Assembly (NCBI GenBank): GCA_019421015.1
Contig: JAHZGC010000024.1
Location: 862 to 64,861 of the forward strand
DNA from: Coriobacteriaceae bacterium
GTDB lineage: Bacteria; Actinomycetota; Coriobacteriia; Coriobacteriales; UMGS124
Length of the DNA: 64,000 nt
Reading direction: 5' to 3'
Positions 7,881-54,850 of this stretch are shown here, piece by piece (position 1 is the first letter of the stretch; the number at the start of each line of letters is the position of its first letter). The translations under genes and the position numbers were made by a program. The notes under the pieces were generated by a model. It made no database searches. It saw nothing but the letters and a program-made list of their open reading frames with translations, and was not told the DNA's origin.

Positions 7881-9431
7881 ATGGGCCAAGCGGACAATCC
7901 CGAAGGACCTTCTACGGCGGACGCCCAGGCGGTCGCGGCCGCCCTGCGGGGCCTGCCCCGCGTCGACGACATGCTTGCCGACCCGGCGGTGGCGCAGGCC
8001 CGGCAGGGTGTGCCCCGCGAAGTGGCACTTGCGGCGGTACGCGGGCTGCTCGACGAGGAGCGCGCCTGCATCCGCGCCGGCCGGCCGGGCCGGTCCCGCG
8101 AGGGCCTTTTGGCCGAGTGCGCGGCCCGCGTGGCCCTGGCCGCCCTGCCGCACCTGCGCTGCGTGGTGAACGCCACCGGTACGGTCATCCACACCAACCT
8201 GGGCCGTGCGCCGCTCTCGGCCAAGGTCGCCGCCCACGTGGCCGATGTGGCGAGCCACTACTCCACCCTCGAGTTCGACGTGGAGGAGGGGGTGCGCGGC
8301 TCGCGCCACGACCATGTGCGCGAGCTCATCTGCGCCATCACGGGGGCCGAGGACGCGGCGGTGGTGAACAACAACGCCGCCGCCGTGATGATGGTCCTCG
8401 CCGAGTTCGCCCGGGGCCGCGAGGTCGTGGTGAGCCGCGGCGAGCTCATCGAGATCGGCGGGTCGTTCCGCATCCCCGACATCATGGCCATGTCGGGGGC
8501 GCGCATGGTGGAGGTGGGCACCACCAACAAGACCCACCTGGTCGACTTTGAGCGGGCCATCACGCCCGAGACGGCCCTCGTCCTCAAGGTGCACCCCTCC
8601 AACTACCGCGTCGTGGGCTTCCACGAGGAGGTGGCCCCCGACGAGCTGGCGCGGCTGGCCCACGCCCACGGCGTCATGGTCTACGAGGACCAGGGCTCCG
8701 GCTCCTTCGTGGACCTGGCCGCCGCCGGTGTCGGCTCCGGCGAGCACACGGCGGCCTGGTCGCTCGCCCAGGGGGTCGACCTCGTGAGCTTCTCGGGCGA
8801 CAAGCTGCTCGGCGCGGCCCAGGCGGGCATCATCGTGGGCTCCTCGGAGCTGGTGCGCCGCGTGAAGAAGAACCCCCTCATGCGCGCCATGCGCCCCGAC
8901 AAGATGACCCTGGCCGCCGTGGAGGCGGTGCTGCGCTCCTACCTCGACGGCGACGCCGCCTGGCGCGACGTGCCCGTGCTCGCCATGCTCGGCGCCACCC
9001 CCCGCCAGCTCCACGAGCGGGCGTCGGCGCTGTTCGGGCGTATCGTCGCCGCACTTGGGGAGCGAGGGGTGGCCTACTCCTTCGACGGCCCGCAGGACGC
9101 GTCGGCCCAGGCGGGGGAGACGCCCTGCGGGCTGCAGGCGGGTCCGGTGCGCCTGCGGGTGACCCCCCTGGAGTCCTGCGTGGGCGGCGGGGCCCTTCCC
9201 ACCGAGGAGCTGCCGGGCTACGGGCTGCGCCTTGAGGTCGACGGCGTCTCGCCTAACCGCCTGCGCGCACGGCTCCTCTCGGTGCGCCCCCGGGCCGTGG
9301 TGGCCCGCGTGGGCGACGGCGCGCTGCTGTGCGACGTGCGCACCCTGGTGGACGAGCGCGACGAGGCCGACGTGGTCGAGGCCCTGGCAAACGTGGTTGA
9401 GCAGGCTGTGGCAGAAGGGAGCACACGATGA
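7881..9431 (+). CDS. selA: L-seryl-tRNA(Sec) selenium transferase
   Basis: Motifs are [16 protein letters not shown] and the PLP-lysine motif [17 protein letters not shown]. The stop overlaps the selB start (ATGA). Confidence 0.9.
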
Positions 9432-11404
9432 GCGCGGACGAGAAGGACCCGGAGGTTGCGGTGATTGTGGGGACCGCGGGCCATGTGGACCACGGCAAAA
9501 GCTCGCTCGTCATGGCCCTCACGGGCACCGACCCCGACCGCCTGCCGCAAGAGAAGGCCCGCGGCATCACCATCGACCTGGGCTTTGCCGAGCTGACGCT
9601 TCCCAGCGGGCGGCAGGTGGGCCTCGTCGACGTCCCCGGCCACGAGCACTACGTGCGCGCCATGGTGGCCGGTGCCGCCGGGGTGGACGTGGCGCTGCTC
9701 GTGGTTGCGGCAGACGACGGCGTGATGCCCCAAACCCGCGAGCACCTTCGCATCCTCGAGGTCATGGGTGCCACCCAGATGGTCGTTGCCCTCACCAAGG
9801 CCGACCTCGTGGAGCCCGACTGGCTCGAGCTCGTGCAGATGGACCTCGAGGAGTTCCTCGAGGGGACGCGTTTTGCCGGGGCGCCCGTGGTACCGGTCTC
9901 GAGCCGTACGGGCGAGGGCCTGCCCCGCTTGTTGGAGGCCTTGGACGCGGCGGCCGAGAAGTTCGCGTGCTCCGAGGCCGCGGCCGCGCGGCTGGCGCGG
10001 CCGGCGCGTCTGGCGGTAGACCGCGCGTTCAACGTGGCCGGCGTGGGCGCCGTGGTCACGGGCACGCTGCGCTCGGGCACGCTCGCCCCCGGCGACGCGG
10101 TGGACGTGCTGCCGGCCGGGACGCGCGCCAAGGTGCGCAACGTGCAGGTGCACGGCCGCGACGTCGCGCGCGCCTGCGCGGGGCAGCGCACCGCCCTCAA
10201 CCTCACGGGCGTGGGGCTCGAGGAGGTGCCCCGCGGCGCCACCGTGTGTGCGCCGGGGTCGCTCGCCGCGCACGACCGCTTCGACGGCATACTGCGCTGG
10301 TTCGGACGCGACCGGGACGACCCGGCGCCACTGGTCTCGGGGGAGCGCGTGCACGTGTGCGTGGGCACCTCACAGGCCCTGGGCCGCGTGCTGCTCTTCG
10401 ACGGGGCCCCCGAGCTGGCCTGCGGCCAGCAGGCGCTGGTGCAGGTGCGCCTGGAGGAGCCGCTGGTGCTCGCCGCCCAGGATCGCTTTGTGGTGATGGC
10501 CTTCTCGCCCGTGGAGCTGGTGGGGGGTGGCACCGTGCTGTGGGCCAACCCGCCGCGCCGCACGACGCCTGCCGAGGCCGACCGCGCGCTGCTGGCCGCC
10601 CTGGGGGCGTGCGACGAACGGGGGGCCGTGCTGGCCCTGGCGACGCGGTCGGCCTTGCCGTTCACGGCACCCGAGGTCGCCGCCTCACTCGACCTGGGGG
10701 CCGACCGGGCGGCCGGGCTGCTCGCCGAGCTGGCGGCCGCCGGCGAGCTCGAGGCGCTGGGGACGCCCGGGGCGGCCCAGGCGTTCTCGACGCCGGCGCA
10801 GCTCGATGCGCTCTGCCAGAAGATGGTGGGGGAGCTCAAGGGGGACCACGGCCTGGCCCAGGCGGGCACCGGCGTGCCCGTGCTCGCCCTGCGCGACCGC
10901 GTGGCCCCGCGCATGGACGCCGCGGCCTTCGGGGCCCTGGTGGCGCGTGCCGAGGCGCAGGGGTTGGTGGGACGCTTTGGGGCCGGCGTGGTGGCCGGCG
11001 ACGACCTGGAGCGCCTGCGCCGCGAGGCCGGCGAGCTTACCGACCGCGTGCAGGCGTCGCTCGACGCCCACGGGGTGGCCGTGCCGTTCGTGGAGGACCT
11101 GGTGGGCGAGCTGGGGCTCGACGAGGCCGTGGTGCGCCGCGGCCTCACCATGCTTTGCGACGAGGGGCGCGCCGTGGCCGTGGACCGCTCCTACGTCATG
11201 GGTAAGGCGGCCCACGACGCCGCTTGCGAGACCGTGGCCGCCACCATCCGCGCCGCCGGCGGCCAAGTCTCGGCCGGCGAGCTGCGCGAGGCGCTGGGCC
11301 TCTCGCGCAAGTACGCGATGCCGTTCTTGGAGCACCTCGACAAGATAGGGTTCACCGTGCGCTCGGCCGACGGGCAAGGCGCCCGCAGCCTGGCCAAGCC
11401 GTAA
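9428..11404 (+). CDS. selB: Selenocysteine-specific translation elongation factor
   Basis: GTPase motifs are [22 protein letters not shown] and LTKADL. The protein is 658 aa, with the long C-terminal extension typical of bacterial SelB. It is translationally coupled to selA. Confidence 0.9.
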
Positions 11405-11548
11405 AGGCTGGAGGCCGTGCGGGGTGCGGGCGACCCTGGGTGGCATGGGGCGAGCGGGCGGCCCGGGCGGGGCTGGACGACGCGTGCGGCGGGCGAGGCG
11501 GGATCGGGTTGGGTGACACGGGATGCGGGCGGGGTGGAGGCTGCCTTG

Positions 11549-11730
11549 TTAATCAATATAGAAAGATAAATTTTGAAAACGATGACTTTTGCATGACGTA
11601 TTGCAGGCTTTGATTCCACCGTTATGAAGAGGGACAAAGAAATACCTGGATTGGTGTGAATTGTTGTAATGTATATATAATTGGGGCAATCACAGTCATG
11701 CATTTGTCTGAGTTTTTACGATTGATGTTT
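11549..11730 (+). repeat. AT-rich TIR element, copy A (family of 3 full copies)
   Basis: It shares three conserved blocks with copies B and C. The blocks are AAATYTYGAAAAYGATGRCTTWTGCATG, AAAGAAAYRCCTGGAWYGGTGTGAATKGTTGYAA and TCATGCATTTGYC..AG.TTTTAY.ATTGAT. Blocks 1 and 3 are inverted repeats of each other. AT content is far above the flanking DNA. Confidence 0.85.
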
Positions 11731-11738
11731 TCTGCCCT

Positions 11739-11806
11739 CGTGTCTCGACTTCCCTGCCCCCGGCGTCTCGACTTCCCTGCCCCGGCGTCTCGACTTCTCC
11801 GTCCCC
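11739..11806 (+). repeat. Tandem direct repeat, 3 x 22-23 nt (consensus GGCGTCTCGACTTCCCTGCCCC)
   Basis: The units are 11739-11760, 11761-11783 and 11784-11806, read directly from the sequence. The third unit is slightly diverged (TTCTCCGTCCCC). Confidence 0.9.
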
Positions 11807-11868
11807 GCATGTCAGCCTCTTGACCCCGCGGCCCGGTTTGCGCATTTGCTGTCGATTGCGGGCCGCAG

Positions 11869-11896
11869 GCGACCATGCGGCGAGGGCGGGTATACT
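11869..11896 (+). promoter_or_regulatory. Candidate selC promoter (-35-like GCGACC, 16-nt spacer, -10 TATACT)
   Basis: TATACT at 11891-11896 lies 12 nt upstream of the mature tRNA 5' end. The -35 element is weak. Confidence 0.3.
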
Positions 11897-11908
11897 GGGC
11901 TCTAACCC

Positions 11909-12005
11909 GGAGGCGGATGGGTCCTGGTGGGCCCCGCGGTCTTCAAAACCGTTGCGAGGCGTGCAGAGCGTCTTGGATGTGTTCGATTCGCATACGCCTC
12001 CGCCA
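11909..12005 (+). tRNA. selC: tRNA-Sec (anticodon UCA)
   Basis: It was folded by hand from 97 nt. The acceptor is GGAGGCG(G)/(A)CGCCTCC plus G-CCA. The D-stem has 6 bp (GGGTCC/GGGCCC) with a 4-nt loop TGGT. The anticodon loop is CTTCAAA, with TCA at 11943-11945. There is a long variable arm (AGGCG-TGCAGAG-CGTCT). The T-arm is ATGTG-TTCGATT-CGCAT. Confidence 0.93.
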
Positions 12006-12019
12006 GGAAGTTTGCGATG

Positions 12020-12066
12020 AGCCGCCGTTCCCCGCGTTGCGTGGGGGCGGCGGCTTTCGTTTTGGG
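12020..12066 (+). terminator. Intrinsic terminator after selC
   Basis: GCCGCCG (12021-12027) pairs with CGGCGGC (12048-12054), with inner CCCC/GGGG pairing. It is followed by TTTCGTTTTGGG. Confidence 0.6.
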
Positions 12067-12110
12067 AGACGGGCGGTTCCCGCATATGTCTCCAGAGAGG
12101 GGAGGGCCCT

Positions 12111-14213
12111 ATGGAGCGCGGTATTGTCACCGTGTGCGGCGGATGCGATTCCGAGTGCGCCTTCGAGGCTTACGTCGACTCCGAGGGCTTCGTGCGCGCC
12201 TCGCTGCCGGTGTCGGGCCATCCCTGCTGCGCCGAGCGCCTCTGCGGCCGCGGCAAGCGTCGGCTCGCCCTGCCCCACCTGCAGCGCGACCGCATCGAGC
12301 ACCCCTTGCGCCGCACCGCGTCGGGCGCTTTCGAGCCCATTTCGTGGGAGACGGCCTACGCCGAGATCGCCGAGCGCGTTTGCACCCTCGCCGACGCTCA
12401 CGGGCCTTCTTCGTTGGCCTGCACGCTGGGCATCACGAGCCATGCCGCCTTCTATGTGGAGCGCCTCATGGCCGCGCTGGGCTCGCCCAACGTCTACGGG
12501 GCCAACGGCGCCTGCGAGGTGAGCCGCTGCACCGGTTGGAACCATACTTTGGGCTATAGCCCCCAGTCCGACCTCGCCCACACCGACTATATCGTCTACC
12601 TGGGCCGCTCACCGCTCGACTCCGCCAGTGTGAACGAGGGGGAGTTAGTGGAGCGGGCCCTGGCCCGTGGCGCCACTGTGGTCTGCGTCGACCCGCGCCG
12701 CAACTCCACGGTCGACGTGGCCAGCCGCTGGCTCAAGATTCGCCCCGGGCGCGACCTGGCCCTTCTGCTCGGCCTGGCCCACGTGCTCATAGAGGAGGGC
12801 CTCTACGACCGGGACTTTGTGGAGCGGCACACGACGGGGTTCGCGGAGTTCGCCCAGGCCATGGCTCCCTACACGGCCGCCTGGGCCGCCCGGGAGTGCG
12901 GTGTTGCCGAGGCCGACGTGCTCGAGGTGGCCCGCGGCCTGGGGCGTGCCCGGCCCCGCGCGGTGGTGGACGCGGGCTTTCACGGCGGCCTGGGCGTGGC
13001 CTATGTGAACGGAGCCCAGACCTCGCGCGTGCTCGCCCTGGTGAACGCCCTGCTGGGCAACTTTGGCCAGGAGGGGGGCAACCTCAACCCCCGGGGCGCC
13101 TGCGAGCTGGGGCGGCTTGACCCGGTGCGCTTCCCTGCGCCGCCGCCGGTCCTTCTCCCCAAGGTGGGCTCGGAGCGCTACCCGCTGGTCGACCCCGAGC
13201 AGGGGCTGTGCACCACCATCGGCGAGTCCATAGCCGCCGGTCAGATCAGGGGGCTTCTTGCCTACGCCTCGAACCCTGCCATGGGCTACGGCAACGGGCA
13301 CGACTGGGCGCGCCTGTTGGGCGGCCTCGACCTGCTCGTGGCCGTTGACATCCGCATGAGCGAGACGGCCCGGCTGGCCCACTACGTGCTGCCCGACGTG
13401 ACCTTTCTCGAGAGCGACCGCGGCGTGGGCCTGCGCGACGGCGTGCTCTACTACCGCAACCCCGTGCTGCGGCCGCTCTACCCCGACGCACGGCCGGCAT
13501 CGCGCATCGTGCGGGAGCTGGCCGAGGCGCTGGGGCTGGGGCGGTACTTCTCGTTCACGCCCGACGACCTGGCCCGGGCCCAGGTGGCGCCCTTTGGGGT
13601 CGACCTGGAGGAGCTGCGCCGCGTGGGCTGGGCGCCGGCGAACGTGGAGGTGCTCGCGCGGGTGGGGGAGCCTGTGATCCTCACGCCCTCGGGCAAGGTG
13701 GAGTTCGCGAGCGACCTGTGGGAGCGCTCCGGTCTGGGCCGCGTGCCGTTCTGGCAGCCGCCGCTCGTGGACCCGCAACCGGGGGAGTTCAGGCTCATCA
13801 ACGGCAACAGCCCCTTCGAGTCGCACACCTCCACGGCCATGCTGGCCCCGCGTCCCGGCGATCCGGCCCACGAGAGCATGGCGAGCGTGTGGCTCCATGC
13901 CGACCGCGCCCGTGAGCTGGGCGTCTGCGACGGCGACATGGTGGAGGTCTACTCCGACCTCGGGTGCGACCGCGCCATAGCCCGTGTGACCCACGACCTG
14001 CATCCCGAGGCCCTCTACACCTCGGCGAGCCCGGGGGGCCGCTCGGGCAAGAACGCCGGTGCGCGCGAGGCCCCCCAGGGGGCGCTCGGGGTGGGGCCGC
14101 TCGACCACACGCCGCTGCGCTTCGACCCGCTCACCGGCAGCGCGCTGACCCAAGAGAACGCCGTGCGCGTGCGCCGGGTGGGGCCGCAGGGGGGAGACGC
14201 CCCTGCGCAGTAG
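12111..14213 (+). CDS. Stand-alone cytoplasmic molybdopterin (bis-PGD) oxidoreductase, PsrA/PhsA/acetylene-hydratase-like branch, no signal peptide, no partner subunits
   Basis: The N-terminal FS0 motif is VCGGCDSEC...GHPCCAERLCGRG. Family-typical segments are VCVDPRRNSTVDVASRWLKIRPGRDLALLLGLAHVLIEEGLYDRDFV and a C-terminal barrel (HADRARELGVCDGDMVEVYSD). SD GGGGAGGG precedes ATG 12111. Confidence 0.85.
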   Translation: MERGIVTVCGGCDSECAFEAYVDSEGFVRASLPVSGHPCCAERLCGRGKRRLALPHLQRDRIEHPLRRTASGAFEPISWETAYAEIAERVCTLADAHGPSSLACTLGITSHAAFYVERLMAALGSPNVYGANGACEVSRCTGWNHTLGYSPQSDLAHTDYIVYLGRSPLDSASVNEGELVERALARGATVVCVDPRRNSTVDVASRWLKIRPGRDLALLLGLAHVLIEEGLYDRDFVERHTTGFAEFAQAMAPYTAAWAARECGVAEADVLEVARGLGRARPRAVVDAGFHGGLGVAYVNGAQTSRVLALVNALLGNFGQEGGNLNPRGACELGRLDPVRFPAPPPVLLPKVGSERYPLVDPEQGLCTTIGESIAAGQIRGLLAYASNPAMGYGNGHDWARLLGGLDLLVAVDIRMSETARLAHYVLPDVTFLESDRGVGLRDGVLYYRNPVLRPLYPDARPASRIVRELAEALGLGRYFSFTPDDLARAQVAPFGVDLEELRRVGWAPANVEVLARVGEPVILTPSGKVEFASDLWERSGLGRVPFWQPPLVDPQPGEFRLINGNSPFESHTSTAMLAPRPGDPAHESMASVWLHADRARELGVCDGDMVEVYSDLGCDRAIARVTHDLHPEALYTSASPGGRSGKNAGAREAPQGALGVGPLDHTPLRFDPLTGSALTQENAVRVRRVGPQGGDAPAQ

Positions 14214-21149: not shown

Positions 21150-21309
21150 CCTTTTGGATGTTCGAGAAATCAGGGAGAAGCCAACCTCGCCCTTAAGGTG
21201 ACTGCAGCGTCTGCGGGGTCAGCAGGAGCTTCTCCAGTGGTTTCTGGAAGCTGCCGCACTACGCGACTGTTACAAACGAGCGGGGCTATCGGTTATGCCG
21301 GGAGCGCAC

Positions 21310-22350
21310 AACCTGCCGTGCTGGCGTTTGCAACGCAGCGACCAACGCGGGGGCGCTGGTTGCAAGCTCGATGGGCTATATGACCGAGGAGGCGGCCCAG
21401 AACCTGGCCGATACCGAGGTCGAGGTTGTCGACTGGCTTACGGCCTCCGGCACGGTTTTCAACGGCGTGATGGCGGACGGGTTTGGCTACGGGTTGTACC
21501 ACTCCGAGGCCAACGTCTCTCTTGCCTACGGCGCAAACGTGCCCTACGAGACCGCGGCCCAGCAGCTCGTGTATGACCCCGTGACTACAGCAATCCACGA
21601 AAACTGCTGGACAAGGCGCGCGAGGGCGCGGTGTGCCAGGGCACATAAGCCCGAGCACAACGCAGTATCAGCAATTCCGTGGATTGCTATAGGGAGGTCC
21701 TGGGCGTGTGTGCGGTGAACGCCGCCGGCGAAGACGTGTATGCCAAGGTGACCAGGGGCGTGGTGCTGGCCACCGGCAACTTTGTGGCCAACAAGGAGCT
21801 CATGCACAATTTCATGCGGCCACGCGAGGTCGAGAACGTGCAGCTCAGCTCTTCCTACGACGAGGGCGACGCCCTGCTCATGGGCCTCGAGATCGGCGCG
21901 GCGACCCACAACCTCAACTCGTTCACGTTCGAGCTGACCGACATGGCGCTGAAAAAGGCGAGCGAGGAGGCGGGTGTCGGCTTTGACGTGGGGGCCACGT
22001 GCTCTTGCTCCGACTCGCCCATCTACGTGAACCAGAAGGCCTACCGGTTCATGAACGAGGGCCAGTTGCTCGACCACTTTAAGGGAACGCGCCCCTGGTT
22101 CGAGTACGGCAGCATCGCGGCCAGCGGCTACACCGGCTGGCCCAACCTGCCGTGCTACGTGGTCATCGATTCCAAGCTCGCCGACTCGTCGCCCATCAGC
22201 ACGACCTCGAGTTGCCGCATGTCGTGGGCCGGCGCGCAGGGGCTGCACTACTGGAGCCCAGACAACCAGGACGAGGTCGACCGCGGGTGGCTCGTGAAGG
22301 CCGATACCCTCGAGGAACTCGTGGCGACGCTTGCCAAGCAGGGTGGGCGC
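21310..22350 (+). pseudogene. Internal fragment of a FAD flavoprotein reductase paralog, truncated at both ends and split by a MITE
   Basis: Pieces 21371..21583 (...EVVDWLTASGTVFNG...QQLVYDPVT) and 21691..~22345 (REVLGVCAVNAAGEDVYAKVTRGVVLATGNF...WLVKADTLEELVATLAKQGG) match the middle of the intact paralogs. The FAD-binding N-terminus and the C-terminal ~120 aa are absent. Confidence 0.75.
21586..21691. mobile_element. GC-rich palindromic MITE, copy 1, inserted in the flavoprotein fragment (TA...TA flanks)
   Basis: It shares the core GCTGGACAAGGCGCGCGAGGGCGCGGTGTGC...GCACAT..GC.CGAGC.CAACGC.G.A.CAGC with copies at 40443 and 52627. The terminal inverted repeats are CAGCAATCCACGAAAACTGCTGG / CAGCAATTCCGTGGATTGCTA. 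It is flanked by TA on both sides. Confidence 0.85.
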
Positions 22351-22401
22351 GAGTGTCTAGTGCGTTTACGGGGGCAAAGAAATCTAACCCATCCTATCTC
22401 C

Positions 22402-23298
22402 TCACCCAAACACCTCCTTCGCGCACCGCGCGAACTCCCGCGCTGGGGCGCTGTCCTCTCGCCAGTACAGCCCCAGCTCCACCCGTCCCAGTTCGGGCAC
22501 CGTCGCGGTTGAGACGCCCTCGAACACCGGCTGGGCGAAGTCGGGCATTACGGCGGCCCCTATACCGGCCTTGATCATGGTGGCGCTCACCAGGGCCGAT
22601 CCGCTGTAGTAGACCGCGCATCCCGGGCAGCGGTGCAGGATCTGCATCTGGGCGTCGCGCATTTCGGGCGGGCAGCAGCTGTCTTCTAGGAAGATCAGCG
22701 ACTCTCCGGCCAGTTCGGCCAAGGATACCAAGGCCTTCTCCGCTAATCGGTTTCCGGGCATCACGCATACGAAGCCGCCGTCGGCGAGTTTGGTGAATGC
22801 CGTGCCTGCGGGTGCGTCGGCGCGCCGGGCGCTGAAGGCCGCGTCGAGGGAGCCCTGGGCAAAGGCCGACCACGTTTCGACCGCGCCGTCGTGGGCGATG
22901 TAGAGATGCACGTTGGGCATGCGCCTGGTAAAGCGCTCCAGGATCTTGTCGAGCCGCGAGATGGCGGCGAAGTTTCCGCATCCCACGCGCAGCGATCCCG
23001 TGAAGCGGGCGCCCTGGTCGCGGGCTCGGGCGATGGCTCCGTCGAGGCGCGAGAGGATGTCATCGCAGTCCGCGGCAAAGAGCGTTCCGGCGGCGGTGAG
23101 CTCCACGCGGCGCCCCGAGCGGTCCACCAGGCGCACGCCCATCTCGTCTTCGAGCCGGGCGATCTGCTGCGACACCGCCGGCTGGGTCACGTAGAGCGCC
23201 CGGGCGGTCTCGGCGAAGCTCAGGGTTTTGGCCAGGTGCGCGAAGGTCTCGAGCTGGTGCTTGTTCACGGGGGCTCCTTGGGGGGGATTGCGTTGCAT
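22402..23298 (-). CDS. LysR-family transcriptional regulator
   Basis: The N-terminal HTH is LETFAHLAKTLSFAETARALYVTQPAVSQQIARLEDEMGVRLVDR. The protein is 298 aa with a typical LysR substrate-binding domain length. Confidence 0.9.
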   Translation of the reverse strand: MQRNPPQGAPVNKHQLETFAHLAKTLSFAETARALYVTQPAVSQQIARLEDEMGVRLVDRSGRRVELTAAGTLFAADCDDILSRLDGAIARARDQGARFTGSLRVGCGNFAAISRLDKILERFTRRMPNVHLYIAHDGAVETWSAFAQGSLDAAFSARRADAPAGTAFTKLADGGFVCVMPGNRLAEKALVSLAELAGESLIFLEDSCCPPEMRDAQMQILHRCPGCAVYYSGSALVSATMIKAGIGAAVMPDFAQPVFEGVSTATVPELGRVELGLYWREDSAPAREFARCAKEVFG

Positions 23299-23335: not shown

Positions 23336-23424
23336 GTGCCCGGCGGCATAGTTCATGGGCGAGCTATGGCTTGTTATACTGCCTCTAATTGTACGGGAGT
23401 ATTGTTTTGCAGGAAGGAGGGTCC

Positions 23425-23766
23425 GTGGCCCTGCGTATTGGAATCGATCCCCGGCAGCTAGATGCCTCCAAAATCTCCAGCGCGATAAAGCCGGTCTTCG
23501 ATCGTTGGCCTGTTGCCAAGGCGTGGCTGTATGGTTCGGTGGCCCGTGGCGAGCAGACGGAATACAGCGATATCGACATAGCCTTCGTACCGCTTCCTAA
23601 CGCGCGCATTGGGTGGAATATCCTGCATCTTCAGTGTGAGCTTGAAGATGCTCTTGATACCGAAGTCGATATCCAAACGGCTCCCAACAGGCGCATGGCT
23701 AGCAAGAGGTTTCTCCGCGAGTTCGACCGTGACAAGGTGGTTGTGTATGAGCGCTCGGCAGAATGA
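23425..23766 (+). CDS. mntA: MntA-type minimal nucleotidyltransferase (antitoxin of HepT/MntA type VII TA system)
   Basis: The motif is LYGSVARGEQTEYSDIDIAFV (GSxxRG...DxD). I prefer GTG 23425, which follows SD AAGGAGGG, over the track's TTG 23389, which has no SD. Confidence 0.8.
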   Translation: MALRIGIDPRQLDASKISSAIKPVFDRWPVAKAWLYGSVARGEQTEYSDIDIAFVPLPNARIGWNILHLQCELEDALDTEVDIQTAPNRRMASKRFLREFDRDKVVVYERSAE

Positions 23767-24127
23767 CGACAGCAGGATCCAGGAGATTTGGGACAACATC
23801 AACCAGCTTGAGGAACGCATTGCGGCAAGCGAAATGACAGAAGAGCGGTTTATCCACCCGCAGAATCCTGTTGAAGAAACCATTGTTGAGGGTTTGACGT
23901 TTCAGCTGTACAGGATTCTTGAGGAAGCGGCCGCTCTAACAGATAGAACCAAGGGCACATTTTTTGATGCGCCGTGGGATGAGATGCGCGGAATGCGCAA
24001 CCGGTTGGCGCACGATTATCCGGGGACGAACTTCGAAGTTGTATGGGACGCGATTGCGAACAGCATGGATGAGCTCAGGCAGGTGTGTATCGCGTATGGT
24101 TCCATGCGCGGCATAGAGCTAGGCTAG
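23747..24127 (+). CDS. hepT: HepT-type HEPN (DUF86) RNase toxin
   Basis: The Rx4HxY HEPN motif is RNRLAHDY. Internal ATG 23747 overlaps the mntA end by 20 nt, the classic TA arrangement. GC is lower than the surroundings. Confidence 0.8.
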   Translation: MSARQNDDSRIQEIWDNINQLEERIAASEMTEERFIHPQNPVEETIVEGLTFQLYRILEEAAALTDRTKGTFFDAPWDEMRGMRNRLAHDYPGTNFEVVWDAIANSMDELRQVCIAYGSMRGIELG

Positions 24128-26137: not shown

Positions 26138-26320
26138 AATAAATCAATATAGAAGGTAAAATCTCGAAAACGATGGCTTTTGCATGACATGCTAAGAAAA
26201 ATGATACCATGGTTATGGAGATGAGCGAAGAAACGCCTGGATTGGTGTGAATGGTTGCAAACAATATATCATTGTATAAATAATAATCATGCATTTGCCA
26301 TAGATTTTATTGTTGATTGC
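26138..26320 (+). repeat. AT-rich TIR element, copy B
   Basis: It has the same three conserved blocks as copies A and C. The ends AATCAATATAGAAGGTAAAATCT and AGATTTTATTGTTGATT are inverted repeats. Confidence 0.85.
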
Positions 26321-26476
26321 ACGCAAGTAAACCACGGGTTCCGCCTGTGGAGCAACGGACGGTTCCACCGTCCTGTGCCCGTAACTGAAAAACCTCGCCC
26401 TGCCATATTGTCCGCGGCGAGCTGACCGCGGAAGGAAGGGAGAGGTCATGACGAACGAAATGACGTTCGGTATGAC

Positions 26477-26717
26477 ATTCAAACCCACGCTCCCCGCGAG
26501 GGGGAGCGACTCGAGCACGACGGCGCCGGACTCCTCCGGCGTGCAATTCAAACCCACGCTCCCCGCGAGGGGGAGCGACTCGTCCAGCTCGTAGGCCATG
26601 GGGTGGCCGTGGGATTCAAACCCACGCTCCCTGCGAGGGGGAGCGACCTGGATGAGTGGTTCAAGGCGGGGAAGGGTGAGGCCATTCAAACCCACGCTCC
26701 CCGCGAGGGGGAGCGAC
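26477..26717 (-). CRISPR. Orphan mini CRISPR array: 4 repeats of 34 nt, 3 spacers (35, 34, 36 nt); type I-C-like repeat
   Basis: Repeats lie at 26477-26510, 26546-26579, 26614-26647 (one C>T variant) and 26684-26717. The plus-strand sequence is ATTCAAACCCACGCTCCCCGCGAGGGGGAGCGAC. Its reverse complement GTCGCTCCCCCTCGCGGGGAGCGTGGGTTTGAAT follows the I-C pattern GTCGC..palindrome..GCGTGG.TTGAAx, hence the minus orientation. No cas genes occur anywhere in the window. Confidence 0.85.
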
Positions 26718-26904
26718 TGCGGTTCCACGCCTTGCGGCACCGCGGGCAAGAATCGAACAGCTTCTGATTATTATGGCCTCGGCCCGTCCCCGGTAATGCA
26801 AGCCTTCTGGAAGCAGATGGTGAACACCTGACGTATCCCGCGGGCCTTCACGCTCGAGGAGCCCAATGACGAGAGCCTCGAGATTACCTCTGGGAGCGAC
26901 TCGC

Positions 26905-30974: not shown

Positions 30975-31157
30975 GTATCAGCTGAGAAAGTGAAATCTCG
31001 AAAATGATGACTTATGCATGGTATAATGTGAAAAATGATACTAGTACTATGGAGACGGCCAAAGAAATGCCTGGAACGGTGTGAATGGTTGCAAAGATTA
31101 TATCAAATGTGGGAATTTATACCATGCATTTGCCATAGATTTTACTATTGATTAAAT
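30975..31157 (+). repeat. AT-rich TIR element, copy C
   Basis: Its conserved blocks are GAAATCTCGAAAATGATGACTTATGCATG, AAAGAAATGCCTGGAACGGTGTGAATGGTTGCAA and CCATGCATTTGCCATAGATTTTACTATTGATTAA. Confidence 0.85.
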
Positions 31158-39523: not shown

Positions 39524-40402
39524 CTACGCCTGCGCCGGGTGCCGCCGCACCGCCCCGATTCCCAGGGCACCCGCCCCCGTGTGGCAGCCGATGCTCAGGG
39601 TGAGCGGCGTATAGAGGATCTCCTCCCCGGGGAACTCCGCCTGAAGGCGGTCGAGCCATCCCTGGCGTTCCTCCTCGGACATCCAGGTTCCGGCCATGGC
39701 GAGCATGAGCTGGCCGTTTTGACGGAAGTCCCGCAGGCGTCCCGCCAGGTCGGCCTTGAGGGCCTTGACCATCTGGGCGAAGGCCGCCCGTTTGCCACGG
39801 GCCTTGGTGTGGGTGTCGAGCTTGCCGCCTTGGATCGTGAGGACCGGCTTGATGTTGAGCAGCGAGCCGACGGCTGCGGCCGCCGGGGTCACGCGACCGC
39901 TTTTACGCAGGTAGGTAAGGGTGTCGACGGTTATGTAGATGGTGGCGTCGTAAGCCTCGCGCAAAAGCACGGCCTTGATGGCCCGGGCGCTGCAGCCGGA
40001 GTCGGCCATGGCCTTGGCATCGAGGGCGGCGGTGAGCTGGAGTGCCGAGATGCGGTGGTTGTCGACCACCTCGACCTGCCCGCCGTAGTCTTTTGCGAGC
40101 GTCTCCGCCGCCGCGCACGACCCGCTCAAGCCGCTCGACATGGGAATGTAGACGATCTCGTCGTTGTTCTCGAGCAGCTCGCCCCACATCTCGATGAGCG
40201 AGGCGGGGGAGGGCTGCGACGACGTGATGCGGTGGCCTTCGGCCTGCAGCCGGTAGAACTCCTCGGGGAAGATGTCGACGTTCTCGTAGAAGGTGCGCCC
40301 GTCCACAATGATCGGCATGGGGAGAACGGCGATGCCGAGCTCTGCCCCCTGTTGAGGGGTGATGCCGCTGTTGCTGTCGGTCATGATCGCTACGCGTGCC
40401 AA
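39524..40402 (-). CDS. DegV family fatty-acid-binding protein
   Basis: The N-terminus is ARVAIMTDSNSGITPQQGAELGIAVLPMPIIVDG. The protein is 292 aa. The start is TTG 40402, preceded by SD GAGGAG. Confidence 0.85.
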   Translation of the reverse strand: MARVAIMTDSNSGITPQQGAELGIAVLPMPIIVDGRTFYENVDIFPEEFYRLQAEGHRITSSQPSPASLIEMWGELLENNDEIVYIPMSSGLSGSCAAAETLAKDYGGQVEVVDNHRISALQLTAALDAKAMADSGCSARAIKAVLLREAYDATIYITVDTLTYLRKSGRVTPAAAAVGSLLNIKPVLTIQGGKLDTHTKARGKRAAFAQMVKALKADLAGRLRDFRQNGQLMLAMAGTWMSEEERQGWLDRLQAEFPGEEILYTPLTLSIGCHTGAGALGIGAVRRHPAQA

Positions 40403-40442: not shown

Positions 40443-40556
40443 TATAGCAGCCCACGAAATTGCTGGACAAGGCGCGCGAGGGCGCGGTGTGCTTAAGGCA
40501 CATAGGCCCGAGCGCAACGCAGCACCAGCGATTCCGTGGACCGCTAGACTGCTATA
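40443..40556. mobile_element. GC-rich palindromic MITE, copy 2 (TA...TA flanks)
   Basis: The sequence is TA-TAGCAGCCCACGAAATTGCTGGACAAGGCGCGCGAGGGCGCGGTGTGC...CCAGCGATTCCGTGGACCGCTAGACTGCTA-TA. It is intergenic, between DegV and the GIY-YIG/GNAT gene. Confidence 0.85.
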
Positions 40557-40801
40557 AGGATAAAGGGCCGGCTGTGGAGGAACCGTCGGGGGCGCAACGT
40601 TTTCACAGGAGTGGCGTGAGCGTGCTCGGGGGACGGACTCGGTGAGGGAGACACGCCCAAAGGCAGGGGCGATATGCCCAAAAGCGGCAGGTCGGCTATA
40701 ATGCCGTTATGTTTCGACCGACCGGCCGTGGGCGTTGCCAAGACGGCTCGCGTCGGCCCAATCGACCCGACCGACCGTGCGGCCCCTTGTTTGGACTTTG
40801 G

Positions 40802-41698
40802 ATGCCCCAGGAAGACTCAGCAGTCAAACACTATATGTACGTGCTCGAATGTGCCGACGGGACCTGGTACACGGGCTACGCCGTCGACGTGGAGAGGCGC
40901 ATCGCCGCCCACAACGCCGGTCGCGGCGCCAAGTACACGCGGGCCCGTCGGCCGGTGCGTCTTGTGGCCAAGGCGGCCTTCGACACCAAGCACGAGGCCA
41001 TGAGCGCCGAGTACCACTTCAAACGACTCGGGCGCGCCCAAAAGGAGCTCCTGGTTGCGCAGATCGGTTCCGCAGTGCCCCTCGAGGTGCTGCTTGTTCA
41101 GGGCGGACTGGTCGCAGCCGGGGTGCCATCGGGCCTGTGCCCCTCCGACAGACGCCCCCATTCCCAGAAAGGACCTTCTCCCATGAGCTCTTCTCCCCTG
41201 TCCGCCGATTCCGCCTTGACCGTTCGCCATGCGACTCCGCTCGATGTGGACTCCCTCGCGGCGCTTGAAGCCCAGTGCTTCCCGCCGGCTGAGGCGGCCA
41301 CCCGGCGGCAGTTCGTCGAGCGTGTCGCCGCTTTTCCCGAGCACTTTTGGCTTCTTGAGCGCGACGGGGAGCTCGTGGCCGCCATCAACGGCATGGTGAC
41401 CGACAGCCCCACCATCGCCGACGAGATGTTCGCCGACGCCTCCCTGCACAACGAGGCCGGTGCCTGGCAGGCGATCTTTGGTGTGGAGACCGCCCCGGCG
41501 CACCAGCGGCACGGCTACGCTGCCCTGCTCATGGAGCGCGTCGTCGACGACGCCCGCGCCCAGGGGCGGCGCGGCTGCACGCTTACCTGCAAAGAGGGGC
41601 TTATCGGCTACTACGAGCGCTTTGGCTACGTGAACTGCGGCGTTTCGGCCTCGGAACACGGGGGTGCCGTGTGGTACGACATGCGGGTGGAGTTCTAG
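40802..41698 (+). CDS. GIY-YIG nuclease-superfamily domain (UPF0213-like) fused in frame to a GNAT N-acetyltransferase domain
   Basis: The N-terminal part is [42 protein letters not shown] (GIY-YIG). The C-terminal part is [27 protein letters not shown]...YYERFGY (GNAT). No stop separates them. Internal ATG 41183 has SD GAAAGGA and could also start a separate GNAT product. Confidence 0.7.
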
Positions 41699-50981: not shown

Positions 50982-52526
50982 TTATCCGACCTCGAACTTC
51001 ACCGGCGCCGCCACCGTGCCGGCGCGCTGGCCTTCCTGGAGCCTGCGGACGCGCTGGGCCTCGAAGAGCTGGAAGACCGCCACCAGCACGACCGAGCACA
51101 CGTCGGCCGCCGACTCGGTGAAGGTGATGGCCATGAGCCCCGTCATGCCGGGCCACACCCAGCTGGCAAAGGTGGGCATGAAGTAGAGCAGCGGCAGGTA
51201 GAAGATGAACTGCCGGGTGAGCGAGAGGAACATGGCCTTGACGGGCTGGCCCGTGGCCTGGAAGTAGTTGGAACCCAGCACCGCCAGCGGCACCACCGGC
51301 ATCGAGATGATGAAGAGCACGCTGGCGGTCATGCCGAACTCGATCTCTGCGGGCGTGAGCCCGAAGCTTGCGAGGATGGGGCCGCGCAGTGCGATGACCG
51401 CCACAAGGATGATCACGGCGAGCACGGTGGAGGAGCCCACGCCGACCCACAGCGTGCGCCGCACGCGGTCGTAGCGGCGCGCCCCGTAGTTGAAGCCCTC
51501 GATGGGCTGGGCGGCGATGCCGATGCCGATGATGGCGAAGCAGCACATCTGCACGATTTTGTTGAGCGAGCCGATGACCGCGAGGCCGCCGTCGACGCCG
51601 ATGGGGTCGCCGGGCCCCAACGTCCAGATCTGCTGGTTGAGCAGGGTGGAGACGAACGCGGCCGCCAGCTGCATGGCGAAGCTCGCGATGCCGAGCGCGG
51701 CTATGCTGCCGAGCACGTGCAGGTGGGGCCTCAGGGTCTCCAGGCGTAGCTTGATGGTCGAGCGGCTGGTGCGGAAGTACCCCAGCACCACCAGGGCGCA
51801 GGTCAGCTGGCCCAGCACGGTGCCCAGCGCGCCGCCGAACACGCCCCACCGCAGCGCGATGACGAGCAGCCAGTTAAAGAAGATCGACGCCACGCAGCCG
51901 CAGGCCATGGTGAGCAGGGCCCACTGCGGCGAGCCGTCGGTGCGGATAAAGTTGTTGAGAGAGGGGCCTATAGCCTGGATCACGAAGCCGCAGATGAGCG
52001 TGCCCGTGTAGGTGCGCGCCATGTCGAGCAGGGCCGGCGTGCAGCCGCAGAGGTAAAGCAGCGGGTCGAGAAAGACGAGCATGCCTATGCTGGCCAACCC
52101 GCAGACCACGATGTTCAAAAAGATGGCGTTGCCCAGGCAAAGCTCCGCCTCGGCCACGGAGCCCTCGCCCATCTTAATGGCCGCCCGCGCGTTGCCGCCG
52201 GCGCCGAACCACATGGCGAAGGCGTTCATGACGGTCATGATCGGGAAGGCCACCGTGGTGATGGCCACGGCCTCCGACCCCACGCCCTGGCCCAGGAAGA
52301 TAGTGTTGATCACGTTGTAGAGCGTGGTGCACATGACCGCGAGGATGGTGGGCGGGGCGAACTCGAGCAGCAGCTTGCCCACCGGCTCGGTGCCCATGCG
52401 CAGGTTCTTGAGGGGGATACGCTCGGGGGAGGGAGCTTGGGGATCTTCGCCGCCGTTGCGGTCGAGTTGCCGATCTTCGATGGTCACAAATCCTCCCCCT
52501 GGAGCGTACTGGCTATTTGTAGCCAT
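50982..52526 (-). CDS. MATE family efflux transporter
   Basis: The protein is 514 aa with 12 predicted TM segments. The motif is LLLEFAPPTILAVMCTTLYNVINTIFLGQGVG. Confidence 0.85.
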   Translation of the reverse strand: MATNSQYAPGGGFVTIEDRQLDRNGGEDPQAPSPERIPLKNLRMGTEPVGKLLLEFAPPTILAVMCTTLYNVINTIFLGQGVGSEAVAITTVAFPIMTVMNAFAMWFGAGGNARAAIKMGEGSVAEAELCLGNAIFLNIVVCGLASIGMLVFLDPLLYLCGCTPALLDMARTYTGTLICGFVIQAIGPSLNNFIRTDGSPQWALLTMACGCVASIFFNWLLVIALRWGVFGGALGTVLGQLTCALVVLGYFRTSRSTIKLRLETLRPHLHVLGSIAALGIASFAMQLAAAFVSTLLNQQIWTLGPGDPIGVDGGLAVIGSLNKIVQMCCFAIIGIGIAAQPIEGFNYGARRYDRVRRTLWVGVGSSTVLAVIILVAVIALRGPILASFGLTPAEIEFGMTASVLFIISMPVVPLAVLGSNYFQATGQPVKAMFLSLTRQFIFYLPLLYFMPTFASWVWPGMTGLMAITFTESAADVCSVVLVAVFQLFEAQRVRRLQEGQRAGTVAAPVKFEVG

Positions 52527-52626: not shown

Positions 52627-52731
52627 TAGGGCGGTCCACAGAATCGCTGGACAAGGCGCGCGAGGGCGCGGTGTGCTGAGGCACATGAGCTCGAGCGCAA
52701 CGCGGTATCAGCGATTCTGTGGACCGCCCTA
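52627..52731. mobile_element. GC-rich palindromic MITE, copy 3 (TA...TA flanks)
   Basis: The sequence is TA-GGGCGGTCCACAGAATCGCTGGACAAGGCGCGCGAGGGCGCGGTGTGC...CAGCGATTCTGTGGACCGCCC-TA. It is intergenic. Confidence 0.85.
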
Positions 52732-53143: not shown

Positions 53144-54850
53144 TTACTCGGCGAGGTGCTTGCCCAGCAGGTAGCCAAAGGTCAGGCAGGTGGCACCCAG
53201 GTTGTGGCCCGGGAAGTGGGTCGAGTAGCAGTTGTTGTACATGTCGCCCACCATGGAGCCGAGGCAGTACAGGCCGGGGATCACGTTGTCGTCCTTGTCC
53301 TGGACCTCCATGTCGACGGTGCAGCGGATGCCGCCGGTGGTCGAGAGGAACCACGGGGTGCACTTGATGCCGTAGAACGGGCCGTTCTTGATGGGGAGCA
53401 GCAGCTCGGGGCGCTTGTCGAACTCCTCGTCGTAGCCCTGCTCGGCGTACTTGTTGTAGCGCTCGATCTGGGCCAGGGTCTCCTCGGCGGGCAGCCCGAG
53501 CTGGTCCACGAGCTCCTCGAGGGTGTCGGCCTTGATCATCTTGACCTCGATCTCGCCCGAGCCGTTCATCTCGATGAAGCCGGGGCCGTTCACGCACTCC
53601 TCCCAGTAGTCGATGACGGCCTGGGGGTCGGCGAAGGCGGGGTCGCCGTCGACGAAGGCGGGGTTCATCCACTGGGGCTCGTTGGCGTAATCGATGTCCC
53701 AGATGGCAAAGGCGTGCTGGCCCTTCTCGTGCATGAGCGAGAGGCCGCCGTGGGAGATGACGTTATCCTCGTTGGTGTAGCGTTTGCCGTCGCTGTTGAC
53801 CATGAGGCCCTGGAAGGCGCGCACCTGCTTGGTGATGGAGCGCCACTGGAAGCAGAACACCAGCGGGCAGGGAGTGCCGGTGCGGTCGAGGGCCGCGCCC
53901 GCCCAGTAGGCCATCTTGTGGCCGGAACCGGGCCAGATGCCGCCGGGGGTGTCCTTCATCCAGGGGATCAGGGTCTCCTTCATCTCCTGGTCGGTGCCGA
54001 AGTCGCCGGTGGCCATGACGACGCCCTTGGCGGCGTTGTACTGGGTGATGGTGCCGTCCTCGTCCTCGGCGATGACGCCGATTACGCGGCCGTCGGCGTC
54101 CTTAACGAGCTGCTTGGCCTCGGTGTTGTACTGCACGGGGCAGCCCTGCGCCTCGCAGTAGGCGGCTAGGTTCTCGCACACGTCCTGCTGGGGGTTGGCG
54201 GCGGGGCCGCTGCCGTTGGGGCCGTAGAGGAACTCGTGGGTGCCGGGGAACTCGCCGTTGATGCCCTCCGGGTCGTGGTACCAGTGCTCCATGACGGGGG
54301 TCAGGTCGTAGCCGCCCACCTTGCTGGCGGTGGTCATCTTGTCGATCATCCAGTTCATGGCCTCTTCGGACTTGTGGGCGTGGAGCATCCACTTGGCGCC
54401 GTCGATGCGGTAGCTGTGGTAGCCCATCATGCGCTTGAACACGCGGCCGATGTCGAAGAGCTTCTCGTCATCGTGCACGGGGGCGCTGGTGCCGGTGGTG
54501 TAGTGGTAGCCCTTCTCGTCCATGAGCTTGGAGTTGATGGCAAAGGTGGAGCCGCCGCGGCCGATGACCATGGGCAGGCGCTCGAGGATGACGACGTTCA
54601 GGCCCTCTTCGGAGGCGGACACGGCGCAGTTGAGGCCCGAGAAGCCGGCGCCCACCACGACCACGTCGGCGTCGACGGTGCGCTCGGGCTCGATGGGCTC
54701 GGGGGCGACCAGGAACGAGGGCACGCTGCCGTCGGCGGGGGCGGCCTCCTCGGCCTGGGCCCGGGTCATGCCGATGTTCATGAGGGCGGCCACGCCGGCG
54801 GACACGGCGGCGCCTGCGACGAACGTGCGGCGGTTCAGGGTTGCTTCCAT
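53144..54850 (-). CDS. Tat-exported FAD-dependent flavoprotein reductase, paralog 5
   Basis: The Tat signal is MEATLNRRTFVAGAAVSAGVAALMNIGMTRAQA. The FAD fold is ADVVVVGAGFSGLNCAVSASEEGLNVVILER, with GVVMATGDF also present. SD AAAGGAG precedes the start. Confidence 0.9.
   Translation of the reverse strand: MEATLNRRTFVAGAAVSAGVAALMNIGMTRAQAEEAAPADGSVPSFLVAPEPIEPERTVDADVVVVGAGFSGLNCAVSASEEGLNVVILERLPMVIGRGGSTFAINSKLMDEKGYHYTTGTSAPVHDDEKLFDIGRVFKRMMGYHSYRIDGAKWMLHAHKSEEAMNWMIDKMTTASKVGGYDLTPVMEHWYHDPEGINGEFPGTHEFLYGPNGSGPAANPQQDVCENLAAYCEAQGCPVQYNTEAKQLVKDADGRVIGVIAEDEDGTITQYNAAKGVVMATGDFGTDQEMKETLIPWMKDTPGGIWPGSGHKMAYWAGAALDRTGTPCPLVFCFQWRSITKQVRAFQGLMVNSDGKRYTNEDNVISHGGLSLMHEKGQHAFAIWDIDYANEPQWMNPAFVDGDPAFADPQAVIDYWEECVNGPGFIEMNGSGEIEVKMIKADTLEELVDQLGLPAEETLAQIERYNKYAEQGYDEEFDKRPELLLPIKNGPFYGIKCTPWFLSTTGGIRCTVDMEVQDKDDNVIPGLYCLGSMVGDMYNNCYSTHFPGHNLGATCLTFGYLLGKHLAE

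Follow-up and report, generated by a model that had tools for sequence, protein, structure and literature searches.

The window (the whole stretch of 64,000 nucleotides that was analysed) contains seven or more paralogous FAD_binding_2 reductases, as genes or as remnants, between nucleotides 16935 and 54850, together with three adjacent GerE/LuxR regulator genes. A selenocysteine cluster occupies nucleotides 7881–14213, in which SelA (7881–9431), SelB (9428–11404) and tRNA-Sec (11909–12001) are followed by a molybdopterin oxidoreductase, and a HepT/nucleotidyltransferase toxin-antitoxin pair is found at 23389–24127. The closest named homologues of SelB bear the label 'Coriobacteriales bacterium' and share 54% identity with it. 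Among these genes lie three copies of a short inverted-repeat element (Table 1). A second dispersed repeat family of approximately 170 nt, 73–94% identical, is present at 11560–11727, 26151–26318 and 30985–31153, adjoining reductase and regulator genes; these repeats may represent promoter regions that were duplicated in paralogous gene cassettes. A short CRISPR-like array at 26468–26720 comprises four copies, approximately 69 nt apart, of a palindromic G+C-rich repeat with ATTCAAACCCACGCTCCCCGCGAGGGGGAGCGAC, which we take to resemble the repeats of type I-C systems.

Table 1. Window coordinates of the element copies, their target duplicates and the genes beside them
Feature	Position	Strand	Remarks
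FAD-binding reductase pseudogene remnant hosting copy 1	21300..22400	+	joined translation; homologues with PF00890
TA target duplicate, left, copy 1	21586..21587	.	single TA at the L031 empty site
Element copy 1, 102 nt, CAGCAATCC...GGATTGCTA	21588..21689	+	within the reductase pseudogene remnant
TA target duplicate, right, copy 1	21690..21691	.	direct reading and filled/empty comparison
DegV gene	39524..40402	-	left neighbour of copy 2
Copy 2 including TA flanks	40443..40556	+	TA 40443-40444, element 40445-40554 (110 nt), TA 40555-40556
GIY-YIG/GNAT gene	40709..41698	+	right neighbour of copy 2; divergent from DegV
MatE gene	50982..52526	-	other neighbour of copy 3
Copy 3 including TA flanks	52627..52731	+	TA 52627-52628, element 52629-52729 (101 nt), TA 52730-52731
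Flavoprotein reductase gene	53144..54850	-	copy 3 lies between its stop and the MatE start

Copies of the element and their insertion sites

All three copies reported in the original prediction are present, with a common core and TA on both sides. The window has exactly three occurrences of the 31-mer GCTGGACAAGGCGCGCGAGGGCGCGGTGTGC, always on the + strand, with starts at 21606, 40462 and 52646; this core is invariant across the copies, and 0 occurrences are expected by chance (100 shuffles). In the consensus first proposed the loop should be N3–N4 rather than N3, and the terminal repeat quoted with it, CCACGRAAWYGCTGG, is an approximation: copy 3 reads CCACAGAATCGCTGG and copy 1 carries an extra A. 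A covariance model built from this Coriobacteriales element family only (R1) scored copies 1, 2 and 3 at 104, 108.6 and 123 bits, respectively, and neither a scan with R1 nor terminal-repeat searches found further copies or solo ends in the window. Copy 2 has 8 surplus nt at its right end (about 40541–40548), in the context GTGGAC[CGCTAGAC]TGCTATA, which nearly repeat the last 8 nt of the element. They are absent from a 95%-identical strain (L042), where copy 2 has the clean 102-nt form TA-TAGCAGCCC...GGACTGCTA-TA (L042 2337–2442); the surplus may have arisen by slippage or may be a footprint.

The host of copy 1 is related to a family of reductases carrying PF00890 (homologues P0001–P0019). 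Removal of nucleotides 21588–21691 (104 nt) joins ...QQLVYDPVT to REVLGVCAVNAAGEDVY in one frame (REVLGV...), and the uninterrupted homologues P0005 and P0002 read ...QLVYDPVTKEVLGV... straight across the site. Upstream of about 21300 there is no match to the intact N-terminus known from P0017 and L052, and at the other end the remnant lacks its C-terminal third, a LysR gene (22402–23298) starting at that point. Judged from its sequence, the reductase is not a live gene; it is a dead remnant truncated at both ends. The prediction that copy 1 interrupts a reductase coding sequence whose frame is restored by its removal was right as to the frame and the homologue sequence, with the qualification that the coding sequence is a remnant. 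Decay or fragmentation of the reductase is also seen in the element-free lineages, so its inactivation need not be due to the insertion. A second insertion upstream in the reductase was considered and rejected on comparison with L052, the change there being a 5′ truncation or replacement.

Three related lineages, approximately 86% identical to the window where measured (L029, L031), hold the same reductase remnant without the element. Copy 1 is missing from L029–L032 and L052, and present in L033 and L040. The empty sites read GTGAC-TA-AGGAGG (L031/L032) and GTGAC-CA-AAGAGG (L029/L030 and L052), against GTGAC-TA-[102 nt]-TA-GGGAGG for the filled site in the window, a difference of exactly 102 nt plus one TA. 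BLAST alignments of the window with L031 end at 21587, restart at 21690 and overlap on a single TA, which indicates insertion with a 2-nt TA duplication. These orthologous loci bear out the original claim of a mobile miniature inverted-repeat element that duplicates its TA target, and the element is a genuine TA-duplicating MITE of known kind.

Four more insertion sites were found beyond the window, two by a metagenome scan (L027, L028) and two by a six-frame protein search (L039, L041). The original prediction had named copies elsewhere without TA flanks as an outcome that would tell against it; all four are TA-flanked, and TA stands at both ends in 7 of 7 known insertion sites. Since TA makes up 2.0% of the dinucleotides in the window, these flanks are not due to chance. 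L041 (ERZ28576687 scaffold_5167) is chimeric, with the Nextera adapter signatures VSYTHLL, LSLIHI and CLLYTS in its translations, so that around its element copy nothing but the directly adjoining sequence is trustworthy. The metagenome scan yielded only the two extra copies, the protein search, for which the six translated frames of the element were concatenated, returned three ORFs with only two new sites, and scans of viral sequences gave no copies. Among species-representative genomes there were only six matches to a core 22-mer; they come from Kocuria and Alphaproteobacteria, do not extend beyond the 22-mer and are put down to chance. Either the host genome is not represented in that set or the repeat is collapsed there. 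Short-read contigs stop inside the core (L010, L012, L026, L033, L043 and L044), as expected for a dispersed multi-copy repeat.

No insertion polymorphism was seen among strains 95–97% identical to the window (L033, L040, L042), which still have the element where copies 1 and 2 lie. Since empty sites occur only in the lineages that are approximately 86% identical where measured, the insertions are old and fixed, not recent. Copy 3 has no clean empty site, the alternative allele swapping the whole spacer for a toxin-antitoxin pair. In L022 (4700–5900) and L045–L050 this two-gene cassette, encoding a PIN_3 toxin and a 127-aa protein, stands in place of the flavoprotein–MatE spacer and of the element in it.

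Hairpin structure of the element

On folding, each copy gives one long imperfect hairpin that is more stable than shuffled sequences on both strands (z -4.7 to -10), copy 3 being the most perfect of the three (-74.7 kcal/mol, z -10). A consensus structure was derived from eleven aligned rows, representing the seven sites and orthologous variants. It contains 39 pairs with a 24-pair outer helix, and 95.8% of the cells are paired. Compensatory double changes were found in seven pairs, all of them in the outer helix formed by the terminal repeats (e.g. GCAAT/ATTGC versus GCGGT/ACCGC), and the observed covariation score was reached by 0 of 500 shuffles. Conservation is higher in the interior than in the terminal repeats; in a MITE one would usually expect the reverse. 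Since the arms co-vary and the interior is better conserved than the termini, we infer either correction of one arm by the other or selection acting on the hairpin, be it as RNA or as single-stranded DNA. The left half of the core at first looked invariant and the right half variable, a difference that proved weak: over all rows there are 4 versus 13 variable columns (p 0.02), and over independent sites 3 versus 8 (p 0.18). No consistent fold advantage was seen for the + strand RNA, and a search of Rfam gave no family at threshold, only spurious sub-threshold matches to microRNA hairpins.

The features by which MITEs have been described (Delihas 2008, PMC2229807) can be recognised here in the terminal inverted repeats and long stem-loop, in the TA duplication established by filled and empty sites, and in a non-coding length of less than 200 bp, the element measuring 101–110 nt with no conserved frame and with stops that differ among copies. 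It departs from the A+T-rich trait, having a G+C content of 53–66% in a window of 65.3%; A+T richness is true of most MITE families (Delihas 2008, PMC2229807) and is not a strict criterion. The orientation of the element bears no consistent relation to the transcription of its neighbours, and no promoter-like or terminator-like sites were detected at copies 2 and 3, a simple sigma-70 scan being among the tests applied.

Comparison with Correia elements and other families

A presumed resemblance to the Correia elements of Neisseria, absent from the original prediction, was the starting point, and the choice of that family was post hoc; the model searches that came after it were unbiased scans. 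Correia elements possess the repeat TATAGTGGATTAACAAAAATCAGGACAA, fall into size classes of 104–108 and 153–157 bp, target TA (sometimes CA) and have a polar core (PMC5039591, PMC2649163, PMC2229807). Their ends are formed by a 26–28-bp repeat, TATAG[CT]GGATTAA...ATCAGGACAA / ...ACCGGTACGG (PMC5039591), and the studies cited leave the mechanism that mobilises them undetermined (PMC2649163, PMC2229807). The copies used here for comparison were real ones of 105–107 nt from N. gonorrhoeae NZ_CP119140.1. This sequence and NZ_CP119142.1 (L034–L038) are complete 2.17-Mb N. gonorrhoeae chromosomes that have been filed as plasmids.

The two families share the arrangement TA, TAG, 17 nt and GGACAAGGCG in identical register. 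They also agree in size (105–106 nt including both TAs here, 104–108 bp in the short Correia class; PMC2649163), in TA duplication, with CA as an occasional target there (PMC2649163) and CA at the empty site in two lineages here, and in a polar interior with one end in '...GGACAA' and the other in '...GTAC(N)G'. Both would give a long stem-loop transcript, predicted from sequence in the present case, and neither has a known transposase. They differ in the outer approximately 20 nt of the terminal repeats (TAGCAATCCACAGAATTGCT versus TAGTGGATTAACAAAAATCA), in G+C content (53–66% versus approximately 43% in short Correia copies) and in host, here an uncultured member of the human-gut Coriobacteriales (Actinomycetota) and not Neisseria. 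Of the built-in promoters and IHF site of Correia, neither a sigma-70-like promoter nor the 50-bp long form with an IHF site was found here. The match to the Correia terminal repeat is confined to TATAG and the inner GGACAA, with p 0.05–0.5 for the outer 20 nt; the size class and polar core of Correia are both seen in the element, the cross-model matches having one polarity. Local alignment to Correia was modestly significant (p 0.003–0.012). When half-elements were aligned globally, the left interior gave p about 2–4e-4 and the right interior p about 0.006–0.011, and alignment in the flipped orientation was not significant. Profile searches with nhmmer in both directions revealed no cross-family similarity, nor did blastn against a collection with two gonococcal chromosomes.

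Covariance models were compared in both directions, R2 being built from six Correia copies only. Against 240 kb of gonococcal DNA the nine best matches of R1 were all Correia elements, full-length and with the GGACAA end first, scoring 17.6–40.3 bits (E 5e-7 to 0.26, E-values from these models being rough because calibration was shortened); the best other match scored 16.3 bits, and the background peak of R1 within the window was 17.7 bits. Against 78 kb, made up of the window and six other loci, R2 gave six matches, all to the present element, full-length and again with the GGACAA end first, at 24–43 bits (E 9e-8 to 3.5e-3, equally rough), and nothing else reached E 10. Copies 1, 2 and 3 scored 24 bits (E 3.5e-3), 29.1 bits (E 2e-4) and 42.2 bits (E 1.6e-7) with R2, which missed two copies (L028 and L039). 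The cross-matches lie on one strand only, and since a bare hairpin would score on both, they point to a real likeness in the asymmetric interior. What is new here is this reciprocal, polarity-specific match to Correia, an element so far described in Neisseria.

ERIC elements resemble the present one in being TA-flanked imperfect palindromes that are sometimes intragenic and give RNA hairpins (PMC2229807, PMC10969869). They differ in length (127 bp), and kinship with them, suggested by eye from the likeness GAGCG.AACGCAG, was rejected: local alignment gave p 0.3–0.8, and as a control element ERIC scored 3.7 bits or not at all with the covariance models.

That this is a genuine TA-duplicating MITE of an independent family, like Correia only by convergence or chance, seems to us somewhat unlikely. 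Such independence would fit the negative nhmmer and blastn searches, the different outer terminal repeats, the modest local alignment (p 0.003–0.012 only) and hosts that belong to different phyla; covariance models, moreover, reward any long hairpin, and both families are TA-ended hairpins of approximately 105 nt with G+C-rich interiors. Against convergence stand the one-strand cross-matches, from which 12–30 bits can be assigned to asymmetric interior sequence and not to the hairpin, the near-zero ERIC control, the occurrence of GGACAAGGCG at an identical offset from the end, and the agreement of both interiors, left and right, in one polarity although neither mirrors the other. Taken together, the sequence comparisons suggest that the element is probably a distant relative of Correia (CREE/NEMIS). 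It is not a Correia element in the strict sense, as the defining Correia terminal repeat is absent.

Two readings that dispense with a TA-duplicating MITE are far less plausible. A long palindromic repeat with co-varying arms also recalls REPIN doublets, and a REP/REPIN-type repeat, either immobile or spread by a RAYT (IS200/IS605-like HUH) enzyme, was considered on that account; we regard it as very improbable in view of the precise insertion with a 2-nt TA duplication and the match of the Correia model R2 to the element, and none of the window ORFs that were scanned is RAYT-like or carries a RAYT-like domain. Single-strand transposition by HUH enzymes is not known to duplicate the target. 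Just as improbable is a cis-regulatory hairpin (a terminator or processing site) or a structured RNA gene that came to lie at several loci by descent. The very strong fold z-scores and the excess of G-U pairs (32 cells) over A-C mismatches (13 cells) seen on the + strand are what such an RNA might leave, but most of that excess comes from two fixed positions and neither strand folds consistently better; the copies lie in unrelated contexts (copy 1 in a pseudogene, copy 2 in the spacer of a divergent gene pair, copy 3 flanked by two - strand genes to which it is antisense), there is no Rfam family at threshold and no terminator- or promoter-like site, and insertion is demonstrated. The explanation as a whole, a TA-duplicating MITE which is most likely a distant relative of Correia, we hold to be highly probable.

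Proposed mobilisation and significance

As a MITE, the element is a non-autonomous DNA transposon of about 102 nt that encodes nothing. Its terminal inverted repeats of approximately 25 nt pair and the G+C-rich interior partly pairs, so that a single strand can fold into the 39-pair hairpin. Movement would need a transposase supplied in trans from elsewhere in the genome, and this enzyme would cut the TA target with a 2-nt stagger, leaving TA on each side of the insertion. No transposase domain was found in approximately 30 window ORFs scanned against Pfam or in the called neighbours, and there is no second set of terminal repeats in the window, in agreement with the original statement that no cognate transposase is present there. 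Among bacterial insertion sequences, TA target duplication is typical of the IS630/Tc1-mariner superfamily. From the TA duplication, and by analogy with RUP and IS630-Spn1 (PMC2229807), mobilisation in trans by a putative DDE transposase of this type is inferred. RUP, compared here by description, is a 107-bp MITE with terminal repeats and TA insertion, for which a model of trans-mobilisation exists (PMC2229807); it differs in that its repeats match IS630-Spn1, a known IS630-family element in the same genome; the window here contains no such parent element. As regards neighbouring genes, the hairpin, if transcribed, would be a double-stranded RNA substrate, as demonstrated for Correia, whose transcripts are cleaved by RNase III.

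As a MITE the element is ordinary, and it is relevant mainly to annotation, as a cause of broken short-read assemblies and spurious ORFs. The link to Correia, which has been described as a peculiarity of Neisseria, is the unusual part. A more far-reaching proposal, which we put forward tentatively and consider doubtful, is that a single TA-targeting transposon lineage that crossed phylum boundaries (Betaproteobacteria and Actinomycetota) gave rise both to this family and to Correia, with the conserved asymmetric interior (GGACAAGGCG...GAG.GCAACGC.GTA) as a functional module, for example a subterminal binding site for a transposase or a host factor, and not filler. If a related family does exist in a distant phylum, this type of element is not restricted to one genus. 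Were the lineage common to both, comparison of the hosts could reveal the Correia transposase, none being identified in the studies cited, and a second host would give comparative leverage on the transposase families that the hosts have in common and on the conserved positions of the interior.
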